Shown here in pieces: positions 5,803 through 24,192 of a stretch of 64,000 nt of DNA (the first letter of the stretch is position 1; every line of letters starts with the position of its first letter). Location: assembly GCF_049337375.1 (NCBI RefSeq), contig NZ_JBMPIV010000015.1; one strand, given 5' to 3'. Origin of the DNA: Nannocystis pusilla (lineage in GTDB: Bacteria; Myxococcota_A; Polyangia; Nannocystales; Nannocystaceae). A model generated the notes under the pieces. That model saw nothing but the letters and a program-made list of their open reading frames with translations, was not told the DNA's origin and ran no database searches. The position numbers were made by a program, and so were the translations under genes.

Positions 5803-7326
<1,524 letters not shown>

Positions 7327-15290: not shown

Positions 15291-17198
15291 GTGGCCAACT
15301 ACTTCGACGACAACGAAGACCTCCAGTTCTACATGGATCGCGGCCTCGACTGGGCGCCGATCGTCGGGCTCGTCGAGCAGGACTTCCGCATCCCGGGCGG
15401 TTACGCCTCGCTGGACGAGGCGCGGGCCGCCTACCGCGACATCCTCGGCATGGTCGGTGAGTTCGCCGCCGAGCAGGTCGCGCCGAAGTCGATGGCCATC
15501 GACGCCAAGGGCGTCCACTTGAAGGACGGCGAGGGTCACCTCGCGCCCGAGACCGACGCCCTGTTCGAGCAGATCAAGGGCCTCGACCTCCACGGTCTGG
15601 CCTTGCCGCGCGAGCTCGGCGGCATCGGCTGCCCCGCGGTCGTCCACTTCATGGTGTGCGAGCTGCTGGCGCGGGCCGACAACGTCGTCATGACGCACTA
15701 CAACTTCTACAGCGGCATCGCCCTGATGCTCCTGCTGTACTCGGTGCACGAGGGCTCCACCACCTTCGACCGCGAGCAGCGGGTCATCACCGGCACGCGC
15801 TTCCAGCCCGAGATCGCCGAGATCCTGCGCGGCGACGCGTGGGGCAGCATGGACATCACCGAGCCCGACGCCGGCAGCGACATGGCCGCGCTCAAGGCCC
15901 GCGCCGAGCAGGACGAAGAGGGCAACTGGTTCATCACCGGCCAGAAGATCTTCTTGACCTCCGGCCACGGCAAGCACCACATCGTCATCGCCCGCACCGA
16001 GCCCGACAAGCCCGGCCTCGGCGGCCTGTCGCTGTTCCACGTCCCGGCCTACGAGGACATGCCCGACGGCACGCGGCGCCGGATCGCCGTGATCGACCGC
16101 CTCGAGGAGAAGCTCGGCCACCACGGCTCGGCCACCGCCGCGGTCAGCTTCGACCGCGCCCCCGGCCGCCTGATCGGCAAGCGCGGCGAGGGCTTCCAGC
16201 TCATGCTGCTGCTGATGAACAACGCCCGCGTCGGCGTCGGCTTCGAGTCGATCGGCGCCTGCGAGGCCGCCTACCGCAAGGCCAAGGCCTACGCGGCCGA
16301 GCGCCGCAGCATGGGCAAGTCGATCGATCGCCACGAGATGATCGCCGACTTCCTCGACGAGATGCAGACCGAGATCCTCGGCCTGCGCGCGCTCGCCATG
16401 CAGTGCGCCTACCACGAGGAGCTGCACCAGCGCACCAAGATGCAGGGCGTGCTCGACACCGACCCCGACAGCATCGAGCGGGCGCGCGTGCTCAAGCAGG
16501 CCAAGCGCCACGCCAACCGGGCCCGCCGGCTCACCCCGCTGCTCAAGTACATCGCCAGCGAGAAGGCCGTCGAGATGGCGCGCAAGTGCATCCAGATCCT
16601 CGGCGGCGCCGGCTACGTCCGCGAGTACGGGGCCGAGAAGCTGCTGCGCGACGCCATGGTCCTGCCGATCTACGAGGGCACCAGCCAGATCCAGTCGCTC
16701 ATGGCGATGAAGGACGCGATGAGCGGCATCATGCGCAACCCGCAGCGCTTCCTCACCCGCGTGGCGCAGGCCCGCTGGCGCAGCCTCTCCGCCCTCGACG
16801 CGCTCGAGCGCCGCGTCGCGCGCCTCACCTCGCTGACGCTCGCCGCCCAGCAGCACCTGATCCAGCGCACCGCCGCCGACAAGCTGCGCGGCCTCGGCAA
16901 GCACAAGATCACCGAGTGGTCCAAGGAGTTCTTCCAGAACTGGGACCCCAAGCGCGACTTCTCCTACGCCATGCTGCACGCCGAGCGGCTGACGCGCCTG
17001 ATGGCCGACACCGCGATCGTCGAGATCCTCCTCGAGCAGTCGCGCAAGCACCCGGAGCGGCGCAGCATCCTCGAGCGCTGGCTCGAGCGCGCCGAACCGC
17101 GCTGCAACGCCCTCTACGAGGAGATCACGACCCGGGGCGACCGCCTGCTGGCCCAGCTGCGCGACCAGCAGGAGGACGAGGCCGCCTCGGCTCGCTGA
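15291..17198 (+). CDS. Acyl-CoA dehydrogenase (long FadE-like form)
   Basis: 635 aa. ACAD N-terminal, middle and C-terminal domain signatures ([55 protein letters not shown]). GTG start. Confidence 0.9.
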
Positions 17199-17301
17199 GC
17201 CCCGCGGTCCCTGTCGGCGCCGGCCGGTCTGCCGCGAGCGGGCCGCGCCGGCGCGCGCATTTCGGGCCAGCGGCCGCGAGATCGGGTACCGTCCGGCCCC
17301 C

Positions 17302-19134
17302 ATGGCCGTCCGCTTCCGATCCGCCGCCGAGCCGCGCCCCGCGACCGCCCGCCGCGGACGGGCGCGCGAGGCCACCACGGACGAGCCGGGCGCACCCGCC
17401 GAGCCGCGCCCCGCGACCGCCCGCCGCGGACGGGCGCGCAAGGCCACCACGGACGAGCCGGGCCTGCCCGCCGAGTCGCGCCCCGCGACCGCCCGACGCG
17501 GACGGGCGCGCAAGACCACCACGGACGAGCCGGGCGCACCCGCCGAGCCGCGCCCCGCGACCGCCCGCCGCGGACGGGCGCGCAAGGCCACCACGGACGA
17601 GCCGGGCGCACCCGCCGAGCCGCGTCGACCCACACCGCGGCCCCGTCGCACCGGCGGTAGCGAGCGGACCCGGGAGGCCGCTGCGGACGAGTCGCAGTCT
17701 GCGACCACCCGGCGCGTGCGGGCCCATGCGACCTCGGGCGCCGAGCCGCGCCGAGCCGCGCGGTCGAGCGTGCGTGAAGCCGCGCCCGCCAAGTCGCGCC
17801 CAGCCGCGCCGAAGAACGAACGTACCCCCGAGGTCGCGCCCACCGAGCCGCGACCTGCCCGGCGCGTGCAGGGTGGGGTGGCCACCGCCGACGTCGTCGT
17901 GTCCGCGCGGGTCGGCGACAACGCCGAGCTGTTCGCCCAGGTCCTCGAGTTACATGTCCCGAAGGGCAGCACCGTCGCCGACGTCACCTACGGCCTCGGC
18001 GTGTTCTGGCGCCGCGTCCCCGACGGGGCCTACACCCTGCTCGCCAGCGACATCGCCCTCAAGCCGGATGTCCCCGCGCGCGCCGGCGCGAAGCTGACGA
18101 GCGGCGTCGACTGCCGCGCCTTGCCGTACGCCGACGCCAGCCTCGACTGCGTCGTCCTCGACCCGCCCTACATGGAGGGCATGTACCGCCGCAGCGTCGA
18201 CCACATGGCCGGCTCCGGCACCCACGCCGCCTTCCGCCGCGCCTATTCGGCGGCCGCCGTCACCGAGTCGGGCCCCAAGTGGCACGACGCCGTCGTCGAC
18301 CTCTACGAAAAGGCCTGCCGCGAGGCCGCGCGCGTGCTCGTGCCCGGCGGCGTCCTGATCGTCAAGTGCCAGGACGAGGTCAGCGCCAACAAGCAGCGCC
18401 TCACCCACGTCGAGCTGATCACGGGCGGCGAGTCGCTCGGCCTCTACTGCAAGGACCTGTTCGTACTCGTGCGCCCCAACAGCCCCGGGGTCAGCCGGCT
18501 CAAGGCCCAGGTCCACGCGCGCAAGAACCACTCCTACTTCCTCGTGTTCGAGAAGCGTCGCCTGGCGATCCGCAGCGTCCGCGACTTCACGGCCGGCGCC
18601 GACATGTCCGCGAGGACAGCCACGGTCGTCCCCGAGAAGATGACCGAAGAGACAGGCGCGGGCCCGAGCAGGAAACGACGCAAGCCGGCCACCGAGAGCG
18701 CTGGCGGCGGCGGACCGTCCTCAAGGCGAGGTCCGTCGAAGTCCGAGGCGCCGGCCGAGCCCGCAGCGGAGACGGTCGCCCGAACCGGGACCCCGGGCGC
18801 GCTCGCCAGCGCGAGCCCCGCCGAAGCGAGTATGTCCCAAGGTGCAGGTGCACCGGCGCTCGCCCCCCCACGCAGCGAGCCGAGCGAGCCGCAGCCCCCC
18901 GGTGTGCCCATGCCCCTCGGGACAGGTTTGCTCGCACCCGAGCGCCCACCGGGCGCATCGACGACGCGACCCGTGAACAGCGACCTGTCCCTCGAGACAG
19001 CCACCCGCACCGCCACGGCCTCGCCTCCGGCTCAACTGCCGCTCCTCGACCTGTCCCAAGCGCCAGCCCCCAAATCCTCCCCGGGCCGACCTCGCCGCCG
19101 CCCGGCCAAGGCGGGGCAGGGGGGGGGCGGTTGA
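17302..19134 (+). CDS. SAM-dependent methyltransferase with DPPY catalytic motif (N6-adenine/N4-cytosine-like or rRNA m2G-like), N-terminal basic tandem repeats and C-terminal Pro-rich tail
   Basis: Five 20-aa repeats of [24 protein letters not shown] (60-bp DNA tandem repeats, 17330-17640). A core with a putative SAM loop ([12 protein letters not shown]) about 60 aa before [13 protein letters not shown], in gamma-class motif order. No adjacent restriction enzyme gene. Confidence 0.6.
17330..17640. repeat. 60-bp coding tandem repeat x5 (AT-hook-like basic repeats of the methyltransferase)
   Basis: ccgccgagccgcgccccgcgaccgcccgccgcggacgggcgcgca(a/g)ggccaccacggacgagccgggc units read directly from the sequence. 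Confidence 0.85.
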
Positions 19135-19303
19135 GGCGCCGGGAGTGCCGCGCGAGGACCGCGGTTGTCATTTTGGCAACCCGCCTCGGACGGCCTGACA
19201 ATTGCGCGTGACACCCTCGTTCTGGCTCCAGGAGTTGCTTTAGAATCATTCGCTTTTCACCGAGGACCCCGAATTGCACACCGCGGGTTCGACTCGAGCG
19301 CCC

Positions 19304-20713
<1,410 letters not shown>

Positions 20714-20722
20714 CGGAGAGCG

Positions 20723-21778
20723 ATGGAAGCCGTCTTCAAGCAGCACTTCTGGGTCGTCAAGGCGCTGGGCCTCAGCGTCGCCGCTGCGTTCGCCGCCTCG
20801 GCGTTCACCACCTGGCTCGGCACCTCGTACATCTACGAGACCCCGACCGACGAGGCCGAGGCGACCGGCACCGACACCGACGGCGCCAAGGAAGAAGAAG
20901 AGGACGAGGAGGACAAGCCGATCATCAACCCGCGGCTGATGTCGAGCCCCTCGCGCGGCCCCTCCGCGGCCGACCGCAACAAGGTCACGCAGACCATCCT
21001 CTCGCTCAACCTGTTCTGCCCGACCTGCACCAAGGTCGTCACGCCCGAGACCGGCCCCGGCGGCCCCGCGGTCGCGCCCGACCTCGGCCCCGGCGAGCTG
21101 CCGCAGGTCGCAGGCGGCAAGCAGCCCGGCGAAGGCCCGTGCACGCAGCCGCTGCGGCTCATCGCCACGATGGAGACCAACATGCCCGAGTACTCTTGGG
21201 CGACCATCCGCGACGAGGAGGACGGCAGCGTCGGTCCGTACTGGCCCGGCGATCGCATCCGCTCCGGCGTCTACCTCGTCAGCGTCGAGCGCAGCCTCGT
21301 CCACGTCAAGAACGGCGGCGCCCTCGAGTACATCGAGCTCGGCGTCGAGCCGCCGAAGCCCTCGGCCAAGCCGTTGCAGGTGGCCGAGAAGAAGGAAGAC
21401 GCGCCGCCGGCGGCGGGCGCCATCCCCGGGGCCGAGGACGCGATCAAGTGCGAGAGCGAGAACTCGTGCACCGTCGATCGCATGTTCATCGACAGCCTGT
21501 TCGCCAACCCGGCCGCGCTGACCAAGCAGGCGCGGGTGATGCCGTCGATCAAGGACGGCGAGACCAAGGGCTTCAAGTTCTACGGGATCCGCCCGGGCAG
21601 CCTGCCCAAGCTGCTCGGCATGAAGAACGGCGACCTCCTCACCTCGGTCAACGGCATCGAGCTGAAGTCGGTCGACCAGGTCATGGGCCTTTTGACCAAG
21701 ATGCGCAGCGCCAGCAACCTCCAGGTCACGATTGAGCGCAAGGGCGAGTCGATCACCAAGGACATCACGATCCAATGA
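20723..21778 (+). CDS. gspC: Type II secretion system protein GspC (TM anchor, HR region, C-terminal PDZ)
   Basis: N-terminal TM helix, acidic linker, and a C-terminal PDZ-like domain (KGFKFYGIRPGSLPKLLGMKNGDLLTSVNGIEL). RBS GGAGAG. Stop overlaps gspD start (ATGA). Confidence 0.75.
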   Translation: MEAVFKQHFWVVKALGLSVAAAFAASAFTTWLGTSYIYETPTDEAEATGTDTDGAKEEEEDEEDKPIINPRLMSSPSRGPSAADRNKVTQTILSLNLFCPTCTKVVTPETGPGGPAVAPDLGPGELPQVAGGKQPGEGPCTQPLRLIATMETNMPEYSWATIRDEEDGSVGPYWPGDRIRSGVYLVSVERSLVHVKNGGALEYIELGVEPPKPSAKPLQVAEKKEDAPPAAGAIPGAEDAIKCESENSCTVDRMFIDSLFANPAALTKQARVMPSIKDGETKGFKFYGIRPGSLPKLLGMKNGDLLTSVNGIELKSVDQVMGLLTKMRSASNLQVTIERKGESITKDITIQ

Positions 21779-24192
21779 TTGCGCGTAGCAACCCCGTCCG
21801 CCCGACTGCTTTGGGCCTCGTCTCTCTCGGTCTGGCCGCTCTGACGCTCGGCCCGACCACCGTCTCCGCGCAGGATCCGACCACCGGCGCGCCCAGCCGC
21901 GGCGGCGAGCTGATCGGCGACGAGGGCGGCGGCACGCCCGGCGGCGGCCCGATCCCGTTCAACACGTGCAAGAAGACCCCGCGCGGGGCCAAGTTCACGA
22001 TCACGTTGCCGAAGGAGACCGAGCTCGAGGACCTCGTCAACTGGATCATGTCGATCACGTGTCAGAAGTTCATCTGGGACCGCAAGGTGCGGTCCGGCAA
22101 GGTGACCATCCTGTCGCCCGAGCCGGTCACGGCCGAGGAGGCCTACGCGGCCTTCTACGCCGCGCTCGAGACGATGGGCCTGACCGTGGAGCCCTCGGGT
22201 CGCTACTTCAAGATCGTCGAGACCACCGACGCCAAGAACCGCACGCTGCCGACCTACGGCGACGACGCCAACGCGCCCAACAGCGACCGCTTCGTCACCA
22301 AGCTGATGCGCGTCAAGCACGGCAACAGCAAGGAGATCAGCGACGTCCTCGGCCAGCTCAAGAGCAAGTCGGGCAGCGTCGACCTGGTCGGCAACCTCCT
22401 CATCATCACCGATAAGGGCTCGATGGTGCGGCGGCTCGAGACCTTCGCCGCCGAGCTCGATCAGCCGATGGGCAGCGAGAAGATCTTCTTCTACCAGCTG
22501 CAGTACGCCAACGCCGAGGAGGTCGCGCAGATCATCCGCGACATCTTCGGCGAGGCCAAGGCCAGCGGCGGCGGTGGTGGCGGCGGCGGCGGGGCCACGG
22601 GCGGCCGCGCCGGTCGGCGGGCCGGCGGTGGCGGCGGTGGCGGCGGTCAGACCGACTCGGCGATCAGCCGCGTGATCGTCGACGAGCGCAGCAGCACCCT
22701 CATCATCGTCACCACCGAGTCCGACTACGTCGTCATCCGCAAGCTGATCGAGCGCCTCGACGTCAAGCTGCCCGGCGGCGGCGGCCGGATCCACGTCTAC
22801 AAGCTCAAGAACGCCGACGCCACCGAGGTCGCGCAGGTGCTGTCGCAGCTGGCCACCGGCGCCAAGCAGGCGGCCCAGGCCTCGCAGCAGGGCGGGCAGA
22901 AGCCGCCCGCGGGCAACCCGGTCAGCGCCGACCTGTTCTCCGGCGACGTCAAGGTCACGCCCGACCCGGCCACGCGCTCGCTGGTCATCATCGCCTCCGC
23001 GGCCGACTACAAGAACTTGGAGCCGGTGATCGAGAAGCTCGACCGCGAGCGGCGCCAGCTCTACATCGAGATCTACATGCTCGAGGTGAGCATCAAGCAC
23101 AGCACCGACGCCGGCGCGGGCGGCCACTTCGGCTACCCGATCAGCACCGAGCTCGGCGGCACCGCCGGCACCGCGATCGGCATGGTGGGCAGCGCGCCGA
23201 CGCCCGCGCTCAACTCGCTGCTGCTCTCGCCCGACTCGCTGAAGAACTTCACCCTCGGCCTCATCGGTCCCCCGCTGCTCAACTCCGGCACCATCCTCGG
23301 CACCGGCCGCGACGTGCCGGCCTTCGGCGCCATCATCCAGGCGCTGCAGAGCAACAGCGACGTCAACGTCGTCAGCGAGCCGCACATGTACGCGGCCGAC
23401 AACCAGGAGGCCACCATCGAGGTCGGCCGCAACGTCCCGACCCCGGGCGCCCTGTCCTTCGGAGCAGGTGGCGGCGGCGGCACCGGCCTGGTCCCGCTGC
23501 AGTCGGTCGAGCGTCAGGACGTCACCCTGCGCATCAAGGTCAAGCCCTACATCAACGACGAGCGCAACGTGACGATGGACGTCGAGGTCGAGGACCGCGA
23601 CATCACCGAGAAGGACCCGGTCCTCGGCGTCACCACCACCAAGCGGCGCATCAAGCTCGACAAGATCGTCGGCCGCGACGGCCAGCCGGTCGTGCTCGGC
23701 GGCCTCATCCGCGACCGCGAGAGCGAGAACGTCAAGCAGGTCCCCGGCCTCGGCTCGATCCCGCTCCTGGGCTGGCTGTTCAAGAACCGCGTCAAGGAGA
23801 AGGAGAAGATCAACCTCCTCCTCGTCATGGTCCCGCACATCATCGACAGCCCCGACGACGTGCGCCGGATCCACGAGCGGCGCGACAAGGAGCGGCTCGA
23901 GTTCATCGAGCGCGAGACCAACTTCCGCAAGCGCGAGCTCAAGAGCAACATCAACTACCGCAAGAAGTCCGGCATCTTGGCCGCGATCGACAAGGAGGCC
24001 CGGCGCATGGAGCAGGAGGAGCTGCTGCTGCGCCGCGCCGAGGAGGAGATGCGGCGCGAGATCATCACCGGCGAGCTCGGCCTCAGCCCGCGCTCCGCGG
24101 TCGACGACAACGTCGGCGGCGGCGACGGCGGGGGCGGCGGCGCGCCGCCCGCGACGGTGAACCCGGCGCCGGTGATCCGGCGCGAGCCCTGA
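21775..24192 (+). CDS. gspD: Type II secretion system secretin GspD
   Basis: Signal peptide, N0-N3 domains, and secretin domain (VPGLGSIPLLGWLFKNRVKEKEKINLLLVMVPHII). Contains a poly-Gly linker. 805 aa. Confidence 0.95.
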   Translation: MIARSNPVRPTALGLVSLGLAALTLGPTTVSAQDPTTGAPSRGGELIGDEGGGTPGGGPIPFNTCKKTPRGAKFTITLPKETELEDLVNWIMSITCQKFIWDRKVRSGKVTILSPEPVTAEEAYAAFYAALETMGLTVEPSGRYFKIVETTDAKNRTLPTYGDDANAPNSDRFVTKLMRVKHGNSKEISDVLGQLKSKSGSVDLVGNLLIITDKGSMVRRLETFAAELDQPMGSEKIFFYQLQYANAEEVAQIIRDIFGEAKASGGGGGGGGGATGGRAGRRAGGGGGGGGQTDSAISRVIVDERSSTLIIVTTESDYVVIRKLIERLDVKLPGGGGRIHVYKLKNADATEVAQVLSQLATGAKQAAQASQQGGQKPPAGNPVSADLFSGDVKVTPDPATRSLVIIASAADYKNLEPVIEKLDRERRQLYIEIYMLEVSIKHSTDAGAGGHFGYPISTELGGTAGTAIGMVGSAPTPALNSLLLSPDSLKNFTLGLIGPPLLNSGTILGTGRDVPAFGAIIQALQSNSDVNVVSEPHMYAADNQEATIEVGRNVPTPGALSFGAGGGGGTGLVPLQSVERQDVTLRIKVKPYINDERNVTMDVEVEDRDITEKDPVLGVTTTKRRIKLDKIVGRDGQPVVLGGLIRDRESENVKQVPGLGSIPLLGWLFKNRVKEKEKINLLLVMVPHIIDSPDDVRRIHERRDKERLEFIERETNFRKRELKSNINYRKKSGILAAIDKEARRMEQEELLLRRAEEEMRREIITGELGLSPRSAVDDNVGGGDGGGGGAPPATVNPAPVIRREP

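Follow-up and report, generated by a model that had tools for sequence, protein, structure and literature searches.

A locally solitary DNA methyltransferase of the M.NruI/M.Sbo13I subgroup with predicted basic tails in Nannocystis pusilla

The gene studied here lies in a stretch of 64,000 nucleotides of Nannocystis pusilla (NCBI RefSeq assembly GCF_049337375.1, contig NZ_JBMPIV010000015.1), hereafter called the window. It is predicted to encode a DNA amino-methyltransferase in which a catalytic core is flanked by a long N-terminal extension and a long C-terminal tail (Table 1). The GC content of the window is about 72% and its nearest relatives are N. pusilla-type genomes, among them strain Na p29 (L001), which is 99% identical across the protein core. 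An acyl-CoA dehydrogenase gene lies upstream and a gene for a sigma54/NtrC-type regulator downstream.

Sequence analyses revealed that the core has the gamma motif order (X-I-II-III-IV-V-VI-VII-VIII), with the S-adenosylmethionine (SAM)-binding region ahead of the catalytic region. The G-x-G loop precedes the catalytic tetrapeptide by 51–55 amino acids, the acidic motif II (LLASD) occupies amino acids 246–250, and motif IV reads DPPY, not NPPY, and is followed by MEG. A preliminary description of the locus had already recognized a SAM-methyltransferase core with a G-x-G motif ahead of DPPY and had given it the gamma-class order, as in N6-adenine DNA or m2G rRNA methyltransferases; the motifs and their order were confirmed, and the reading as a DNA amino-methyltransferase is supported. 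The profile search that it had suggested gave a match to the Pfam family N6_N4_Mtase (PF01555) below threshold and none to MethyltransfD12 or RsmD; the PF01555 match spans model positions 2–110 of 221, which is the catalytic half, the SAM-binding half being permuted to the N-terminus. A scan against NCBIfam returned nothing useful.

M.NruI and M.Sbo13I, which are 49% identical to each other, were described as a separate subgroup of gamma-type amino-methyltransferases with DPPY in place of NPPY and the extra motifs IVa and Xa, and the cognate nucleases NruI and Sbo13I both cleave TCG^CGA (PMC2890505; Zhu et al., 2010). The Sbo13I system is carried by a 5.4-kb plasmid of Shigella boydii C13 and consists of a helix-turn-helix (HTH) controller, the nuclease and a convergent methylase; the modified position is probably N6 of adenine for M.NruI and N4 of cytosine for M.Sbo13I, and a protein of Plesiocystis pacifica (Nannocystaceae) was already listed among the homologues (PMC2890505). 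A tblastn search of plasmids recovered pSB13, a Shigella boydii plasmid of 5,424 bp on which an HTH gene is followed by a gene for a 224-amino-acid "hypothetical protein", convergent with a methylase gene; from the host species, the size (5.4 kb) and the gene order, we infer that pSB13 is the Sbo13I plasmid. BLASTP of the core (amino acids ~187–430) against the pSB13 methylase showed 58% identity over 244 amino acids (E 2e-100), which exceeds the 49% that the two founding members share. In an alignment of 30 sequences, mainly homologues from outside the Nannocystaceae (alignment A1), block IVa, which follows motif IV (MEGxxRxxxxHxAGxGxHxxFRxxYS), and the N-terminal block Xa (RxQGGxAT) aligned position by position with those of the pSB13 methylase and of 29 homologues. 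The window protein kept all 85 invariant columns of this alignment, the whole of motif IVa included, while its motif V reads DLYEKAC against DLYxxA(G/S) in the family. Among the PHROGs profiles, the match was to phrog_24333, "DNA methyltransferase" (1.5e-61). On this homology the core is assigned to the M.NruI/M.Sbo13I subgroup of DNA amino-methyltransferases, and its enzyme chemistry is already known, the catalytic core being that of an experimentally characterised family.

With the core as query, more than 7,400 homologues were found in a database search, mostly of 250–300 amino acids and 60–70% identical, spread over Myxococcota, Planctomycetota, Acidobacteriota, Chloroflexota, cyanobacteria, actinobacteria, candidate-phyla bacteria and one archaeon. 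Several cluster-A-type mycobacteriophages also hold a homologue (Wheeler gp62, Niza, Dallas and others; phrog_24333) with 57% identity to the same core; these copies have ~270 amino acids and no tails, unlike the Nannocystis gene, which is chromosomal and has conserved neighbours. In Mycobacterium phage Wheeler (L086, 2456–3274), the only phage inspected, the homologue lies among replication genes without an adjoining nuclease, and the phage copies presumably serve anti-restriction. The AlphaFold (AF2) model of the core showed a Rossmann fold with a predicted local distance difference test score (pLDDT) of 72 and a predicted template modelling score (pTM) of 0.75, and the motif IVa loop (core residues 111–144) had low pLDDT in this DNA-free model. 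The top Foldseek matches of the model were Bud23 and Trm11, with a template modelling score (TM) of ~0.46 and 14% identity. These are generic matches to Rossmann class-I methyltransferases, so that the fold is silent on the substrate, and it is family membership and the genetic partner that speak for DNA. Sequence and profile searches of PDB with the core, and with the partner nuclease described below, gave nothing significant.

All ORFs (open reading frames) of 80 genomic loci were clustered. In 53 of the 80 loci, from many phyla, a protein of ~200 amino acids is encoded beside the methylase, nearly always convergently, abutting or overlapping its 3' end; these make up 53 of the 65 loci from outside the Myxococcota, whereas none of the 15 Myxococcota (Nannocystaceae) loci has such a partner. 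The partner matched no Pfam, NCBIfam or PADLOC family. It has the invariant residues E41...D71...E84-x-K86 (alignment A2) and an AlphaFold model with pLDDT 93, it aligned with the pSB13 nuclease with an hhalign probability of 100, and two members of its family are named "restriction endonuclease" by NCBI; these features, and the fusion of several members to an XRE-type HTH domain, identify it as a PD-(D/E)XK restriction nuclease. Nine members of this nuclease family (P0166, P0168, P0170, P0182, P0194, P0203, P0212, P0214 and P0218) have an XRE-type HTH domain fused at the N-terminus, that is, a controller joined to the nuclease, where pSB13 has a separate controller gene. In the window no such gene stands beside the methylase, and tblastn revealed no nuclease remnant in its 64 kb or in 18 Myxococcota loci (best E-value 0.11 or worse). 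The gene is locally solitary, as the preliminary description had stated from the lack of an adjacent restriction endonuclease, and is not part of a complete NruI/Sbo13I-type Type II system at this locus.

Genomic context analyses showed that the order 2-oxoglutarate-Fe(II) oxygenase, acyl-CoA dehydrogenase, methylase, sigma54-type response regulator and GspD is kept in Nannocystis. In Nannocystis, as well as in two related metagenome-assembled genomes, the methylase is accompanied by the regulator/GspC-like/GspD order. In Enhygromyxa-like genomes the methylase adjoins aconitase, and one metagenome-assembled genome (L008), with aconitase upstream and the sigma54 regulator downstream, joins both arrangements. 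The ratio of non-synonymous to synonymous substitution rates (dN/dS) of the core within Nannocystis was 0.04–0.19, which indicates purifying selection. Together, the kept gene order and the purifying selection on the core argue for a vertically inherited, locally solitary methylase and against a recent mobile insertion.

Table 1. Features of the methylase locus and related sites. Positions are those of the window unless another locus is named.
Feature	Position	Strand	Details
ORF of the methylase, ATG to TGA, 610 amino acids (aa)	17302..19134	+	ORF list; N-terminal extension, M.NruI/M.Sbo13I-type core, C-terminal tail
Non-coding block just 5' of the ATG, putative promoter / 5' leader	17240..17301	+	Alignment A3
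N-terminal extension, aa 1–188, Arg/Ala/Pro/Thr-rich	17302..17865	+	Isoelectric point (pI) 11.8, net charge +21
Four near-identical 72-bp / 24-aa units	17329..17616	+	Tandem Repeats Finder and unit alignment
Alternative internal GTG start (MQGGVATAD...)	17866..17868	+	Annotated start of orthologues P0002, P0003, P0006, P0007
Methyltransferase core, aa 190–416, QGGVATAD to HSYFLVF	17869..18549	+	Alignment A1, AF2 model
Motif I, SAM-binding G-loop, aa 225–236	17974..18009	+	D, T, G, G, F, W invariant in A1; motif definition PMC2890505
Motif IV, catalytic DPPY, aa 287–290	18160..18171	+	Invariant in A1; Pfam N6_N4_Mtase match begins here
Family-specific motif IVa, likely DNA-contact / target-recognition loop	18172..18249	+	Many invariant A1 residues
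C-terminal tail, aa 431–610	18592..19131	+	Ala 17%, Pro 17%, Gly 12%, Ser 11%; pI 10.5
Short motif QLPLL, aa 578–582, ~30 aa from C-terminus	19033..19047	+	Tail alignment
Terminal basic patch and Gly tail	19084..19131	+	Holds the only GRP tripeptide of the protein, aa 595–597
Terminator-like hairpin and T-run	19147..19175	+	13 nt past the methylase stop codon
Promoter-like site for the downstream gene	19173-19202		Just after the hairpin/T-run
Sigma54-dependent NtrC-type response regulator	19274-20713	+
GspC-like protein	20723-21778	+
GspD secretin (type II secretion)	21775-24192	+
TCGCGA sites	3494, 3733, 11963, 25473, 32871, 41693, 48240, 52308, 53982, 56778, 58510, 61025, 61415
Histone-H1-like (A/P)KKK repeat tails in other loci	L015 6343-7269; L025 ~6700-7119; L089 5001-5260		C-terminal in L015 and L025, N-terminal in L089

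The presumed recognition sequence of the family is strongly underrepresented in the window. TCGCGA occurs 13 times against 50 expected under a maximal-order Markov model, and against 60 ± 8 in order-3 simulations, and it is the most depleted of ~1,670 testable hexamers by z-score (-5.2, the next being -2.9). The depletion was found in all four 16-kb quarters, and the one-base variants TCGCGT, TCGCGC and TCGCGG were not depleted. The 13 sites were also checked for intergenic clustering, and no pattern was found, most of them appearing within coding frames. Observed counts were below the expected ones in other Nannocystis species (L003, L082 and L083; 3 against 17.7), in Nannocystaceae metagenome genomes (L004–6 and L008–9; 29 against 52), in Enhygromyxa and relatives (23 against 46) and in the solitary, aconitase-linked L089 (2 against 8.6). 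In the 53 nuclease-keeping loci taken together TCGCGA was the second most depleted hexamer (117 against 244), and the depletion in the window (observed/expected 0.26) thus equals or exceeds that of the loci that keep the nuclease (0.48). Three high-GC controls showed little or no depletion: Myxococcus phage Mx8 (20 against 21.6), Streptomyces plasmid SAP1 (15 against 24) and Thermus plasmid pTT27 (4 against 3.9). The depletion is in keeping with a long-standing association with restriction at TCGCGA, and, by homology, TCGCGA is the predicted methylation target.

A different target had been considered in the preliminary description, which held the genome to be saturated with a CATG-cored palindrome and the C-terminal tail to be laden with palindromes, and which speculated on a link to the methylase. 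The window contains 253 copies of CATG where 221 would be expected; CATG is no more often the centre of an extended palindrome than other 4-mers are, and none of the 8–12-mers with a CATG core is enriched. Over the tail, 800 bp hold only three imperfect palindromes of 10–11 nt and one imperfect inverted repeat of 10 nt with a 36-nt spacer. The k-mer statistics and the extension of palindrome arms led us to reject the link to CATG, the predicted site being TCGCGA. As a separate observation, CTAG is strongly depleted in the window (6 against 39 expected); many bacterial genomes share this feature, which probably has nothing to do with the methylase.

The N-terminal extension contains a tandem repeat that Tandem Repeats Finder resolved into a period of 72 bp with 4.2 copies and a 94% match (17324–17624). 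The five near-identical units of 20 amino acids and 60 bp that had been described before were therefore right as to a tandem repeat in the first ~105 codons and as to the quoted peptide, which is a correct 24-mer, while the period is 72 bp (24 amino acids) and there are four copies followed by a degenerate fifth. The four units are 97–100% identical in DNA, and the degenerate "fifth" has only its first 8 nt in common with them. The two closest strains (L001 and L002) carry one unit, so the window represents a clean 216-bp (3 x 72) expansion specific to this strain, and no further copies of the unit are dispersed elsewhere in the window. The expansion is attributed to replication slippage and the extensions turn over quickly. 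The extension of N. bainbridge consists of four units of ~16 amino acids (EPRPAARRVKDKTxPx), the last of which joins the core directly, that of N. exedens of degenerate units of 15–17 amino acids, and that of strain ncelm1 is basic and non-repetitive; peptides of the EPRP..RRGR(P/A) type recur in all species although the unit length differs (24, ~16 and ~15–17 amino acids). The repeats had been likened to AT-hooks. They read RRGRARK, with RGRA in place of the canonical core RGRP, and Pfam AT_hook gave no match at E<=1, so that the label is a loose analogy. A core of the RGRP type is present in orthologues, as RRGRPKG in L082, TRGRPRE in L083 and TGRPKK in L023.

The extension is likely to be translated from the ATG at 17302. 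This is argued by the conservation of the upstream block, the ATG and the first codons, which are nearly invariant among the window, L001, L002, L003, L082 and L083 (alignment A3), the near-invariance reaching over ~60 bp upstream in five species. It is also argued by the distance from the ATG to the core, which in six of seven Nannocystis loci is divisible by three despite taking six different lengths (567, 351, 348, 195, 273 and 357 nt). No Rfam family was found in 17000–19400, the upstream block is not a known RNA, and it contains no match to the sigma-70 consensus. The seventh locus, L081 (N. pusilla, GCA_049060185.1, 3750–5185), has an orthologue that is frameshifted both in the extension, by a 1-nt deficit, and in the C-terminal tail. 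These frameshifts probably stem from indel errors of long-read sequencing in runs of G/C, and they account for the odd annotated protein P0001 of 394 amino acids.

The C-terminal tail is rich in Pro, Ala and Ser and has about 180 amino acids, in agreement with the preliminary description. It is made of degenerate [DE]L[ST]x[EA][TP]AP units and ranges from 50 to 231 amino acids among nine aligned Nannocystis-type orthologues. The tails end in a basic patch followed by GQGGGG, and eight of the nine keep QLPLL, QLPLV or QTDLF; the conservation of this end despite the variable length indicates that the tail is translated. The motif QLPLL (region 19033–19056) resembles the bacterial beta-clamp-binding consensus (QL[SD]LF / QLxLxL), a match that may be coincidental amid the degenerate DLSxExAP repeats, of which the peptide may just as well be a further unit; the clamp-binding reading was therefore given less weight. 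In N. exedens (L083, FOMX01000051.1) the contig stops inside the methylase tail, in a repeated SEPDLSLEPPP...KRPRASEPD segment, and short-read assemblies seem to be interrupted by the tail repeats.

Long tails are confined to solitary copies. C-terminal tails of more than 45 amino acids were found solely in solitary Myxococcota (Nannocystaceae) copies (6 of 15), while 51 nuclease-linked copies had a median tail of 16 amino acids and a maximum of 45. The tails of Enhygromyxa are Lys-rich, with repeats of the AAKKKPVAKKK type and a net charge of +38 to +69, and the solitary, aconitase-linked protein P0111 of L089 has the same type of tail at its N-terminus. A histone-H1-like K/A/P composition was found in L015, L025 and P0111 and is absent from the extensions of the window protein, which are rich in Arg/Ala/Pro/Thr and in Ala/Pro/Gly/Ser. 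The basic, DNA-binding-like character that had been given to the N-terminal repeats of this protein is thus plausible in view of the charge of the extension and of the fact that long basic tails are found in solitary copies only; the repeat array itself proved strain-specific.

Taken together, these results make it probable that the product of this locally solitary gene is a Type II DNA amino-methyltransferase of the M.NruI/M.Sbo13I subgroup, and that it derives from a TCGCGA restriction-modification system and has gained basic tails. The ancestor would have been a TCGCGA-specific restriction-modification system whose nuclease was lost in the Nannocystaceae lineage, the methylase then being retained as a chromosomal gene under purifying selection. 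Its core of ~245 amino acids would bind SAM through motifs X-I-II-III, and its DPPY would serve to methylate an exocyclic amino group, either N4 of a C or N6 of the outer A, with TCGCGA as the most probable site. Once solitary, the enzyme would have acquired disordered, positively charged, slippage-prone extensions, the likeliest function of which would be to bind DNA or the nucleoid by non-specific electrostatic contacts, aiding the search for rare sites and their methylation.

Compared with M.Sbo13I and M.NruI (PMC2890505), the protein has the same ~245-amino-acid core with gamma order, DPPY, motifs IVa and Xa and a motif V of the DLY..A type. Unlike them, it has neither a convergent nuclease gene nor a controller gene beside it, carries ~188 additional residues at the N-terminus and 180 at the C-terminus, predicted to be disordered and basic, and occupies a stable chromosomal position in place of a small plasmid or mobile context. 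As with the solitary methylases Dam and CcrM, no cognate nuclease lies nearby, inheritance is vertical within the lineage and selection is purifying, and by this analogy the methylase could act in regulation or in replication-linked processes and not in defence. It is a homologue neither of CcrM (beta class) nor of Dam (alpha class; MethyltransfD12 gave no match), and its predicted target is rare and depleted, not abundant.

Several points weigh against this reading of the gene as a solitary TCGCGA methylase with basic tails. The specificity for TCGCGA is transferred by homology (58% to M.Sbo13I, the founders themselves sharing 49%) and from the depletion of the site, and the two characterised members reportedly modify different bases (N6-methyladenine versus N4-methylcytosine), so that the family does not allow the base to be called. 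The match to PF01555, with 25.8 bits, falls under the gathering threshold of 26.7, and binding of DNA by the basic tails is plausible as judged from charge and composition only. Points on the translation of the extension and on an unlinked nuclease are taken up with the alternatives that they favour.

A somewhat doubtful alternative, although the strongest one, is that the repeats lie outside the protein, which would start at the GTG at 17866 (or at a GTG at 17770), the 72-bp array being a variable-number repeat in the 5' leader or promoter that might tune expression. Public annotation of the orthologues begins at internal GTG codons, as MQGGVATAD or MREAAPAK, and leaves the repeats out, and homologues from other phyla begin 10–25 amino acids ahead of the QGG motif. 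No Shine-Dalgarno sequence was found at either candidate start. Long open frames are uninformative in DNA of ~75% GC, where a second frame is also stop-free over the extension, and the GC content at third codon positions (GC3), only slightly above that of positions 1 and 2, barely separates the reading frames; moreover, the seven differences among the repeat units are mostly non-synonymous, and L081 has its 1-nt frame break in this region. Against this alternative stand the near-invariant ATG and upstream sequence and the frame kept with the core at six different lengths, and also the persistence of EPRP...RRGR(P/A) peptides despite species differences in unit length. The frameshift of L081 in its C-terminal tail too suggests errors of assembly, and other Nannocystaceae copies have basic tails that are unmistakably coding.

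It is unlikely that the methylase is one half of a working TCGCGA system whose nuclease is encoded elsewhere in the ~12-Mb genome, in which case its role would be self-protection. The strong and persistent depletion of TCGCGA without an adjacent nuclease is the main argument for such an unlinked enzyme, as an observed/expected ratio of 0.26, compared with 0.48 where the nuclease is adjacent, would be hard to maintain without ongoing restriction pressure; the search for the nuclease covered ~64 kb of the genome and so leaves room for it. However, the nuclease abuts the methylase in most loci from outside the Myxococcota and has left no trace in the 15 Myxococcota loci or the window, and unlinked restriction and modification genes are unusual for Type IIP systems. 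No protein named as from Nannocystis was among the matches listed for two nuclease searches, which is weak evidence since most matches are nameless.

Equally improbable is a solitary enzyme that has drifted to another DNA target or lost its specificity, the depletion of TCGCGA being then a relic. Of the positions of the core, 42% differ from M.Sbo13I, its motif V departs from the family pattern, and solitary enzymes are freed from the need to match a nuclease; yet the invariant columns of the family are all kept, including the whole of motif IVa, dN/dS of the core is low, and the depletion is specific to TCGCGA and common to all Nannocystaceae sets.

An RNA methyltransferase of the tRNA or rRNA m2G or m7G type, which the preliminary description had also entertained and which the Foldseek matches to Bud23 and Trm11, a JGI record calling a homologue "tRNA G10 N-methylase Trm11" and a phage record reading "tRNA-methyltransferase" would favour, is very hard to sustain, as those fold matches are generic, no Pfam or NCBIfam family of RNA methyltransferases (Trm11, RsmD and Bud23 included) is matched in sequence, and experiments have characterised two members of the family as DNA methylases, the genes of the family being paired with that of a restriction nuclease.

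The probable solitary DNA methylase with basic tails has a parallel in CarD, the C-terminal domains of which contain HMGA-type AT-hooks in Myxococcus and a histone-H1-like K/A/P region in Anaeromyxobacter (PMC9304148, citing Garcia-Heras et al., 2009). In both cases a bacterial globular domain is joined to a eukaryote-like basic tail of low complexity, Arg- and RGR-containing in Nannocystis and of the Lys/Ala/Pro H1-like type in Enhygromyxa and P0111. The methylase differs from CarD in that its repeats read RGRA and not RGRP and that the tails are borne by a methyltransferase and not by an RNA-polymerase-binding module, and there is no evidence of shared ancestry. On a bolder and rather improbable view, the methylase of a restriction-modification system has become, in the Nannocystaceae, an epigenetic writer associated with the nucleoid. 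HMGA-like (RGR) or H1-like (K/A/P) tails, gained independently at either end, would tether the enzyme to the chromosome, and QLPLL or QTDLF might tether it to the replisome clamp, much as DNMT1 uses a PCNA-binding box. The remaining TCGCGA sites, held at low numbers by selection, would then be regulatory or replication-linked marks and would not serve self-protection.

What is new is that a whole family, the Nannocystaceae, keeps this methylase without an adjacent partner, and that its chromosomal positions are fixed and the selection on it purifying. The solitary copies alone have repeatedly gained eukaryote-like basic, predicted disordered tails, which may be Arg- or Lys-rich, N- or C-terminal and variable between strains, and the predicted target is still depleted about 4-fold although no nuclease is adjacent. 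The gene thus offers an example of the way in which a methylase once used in defence may take on another role, and would extend the CarD-type habit of the myxobacteria of placing HMGA- or H1-like tails on bacterial domains.

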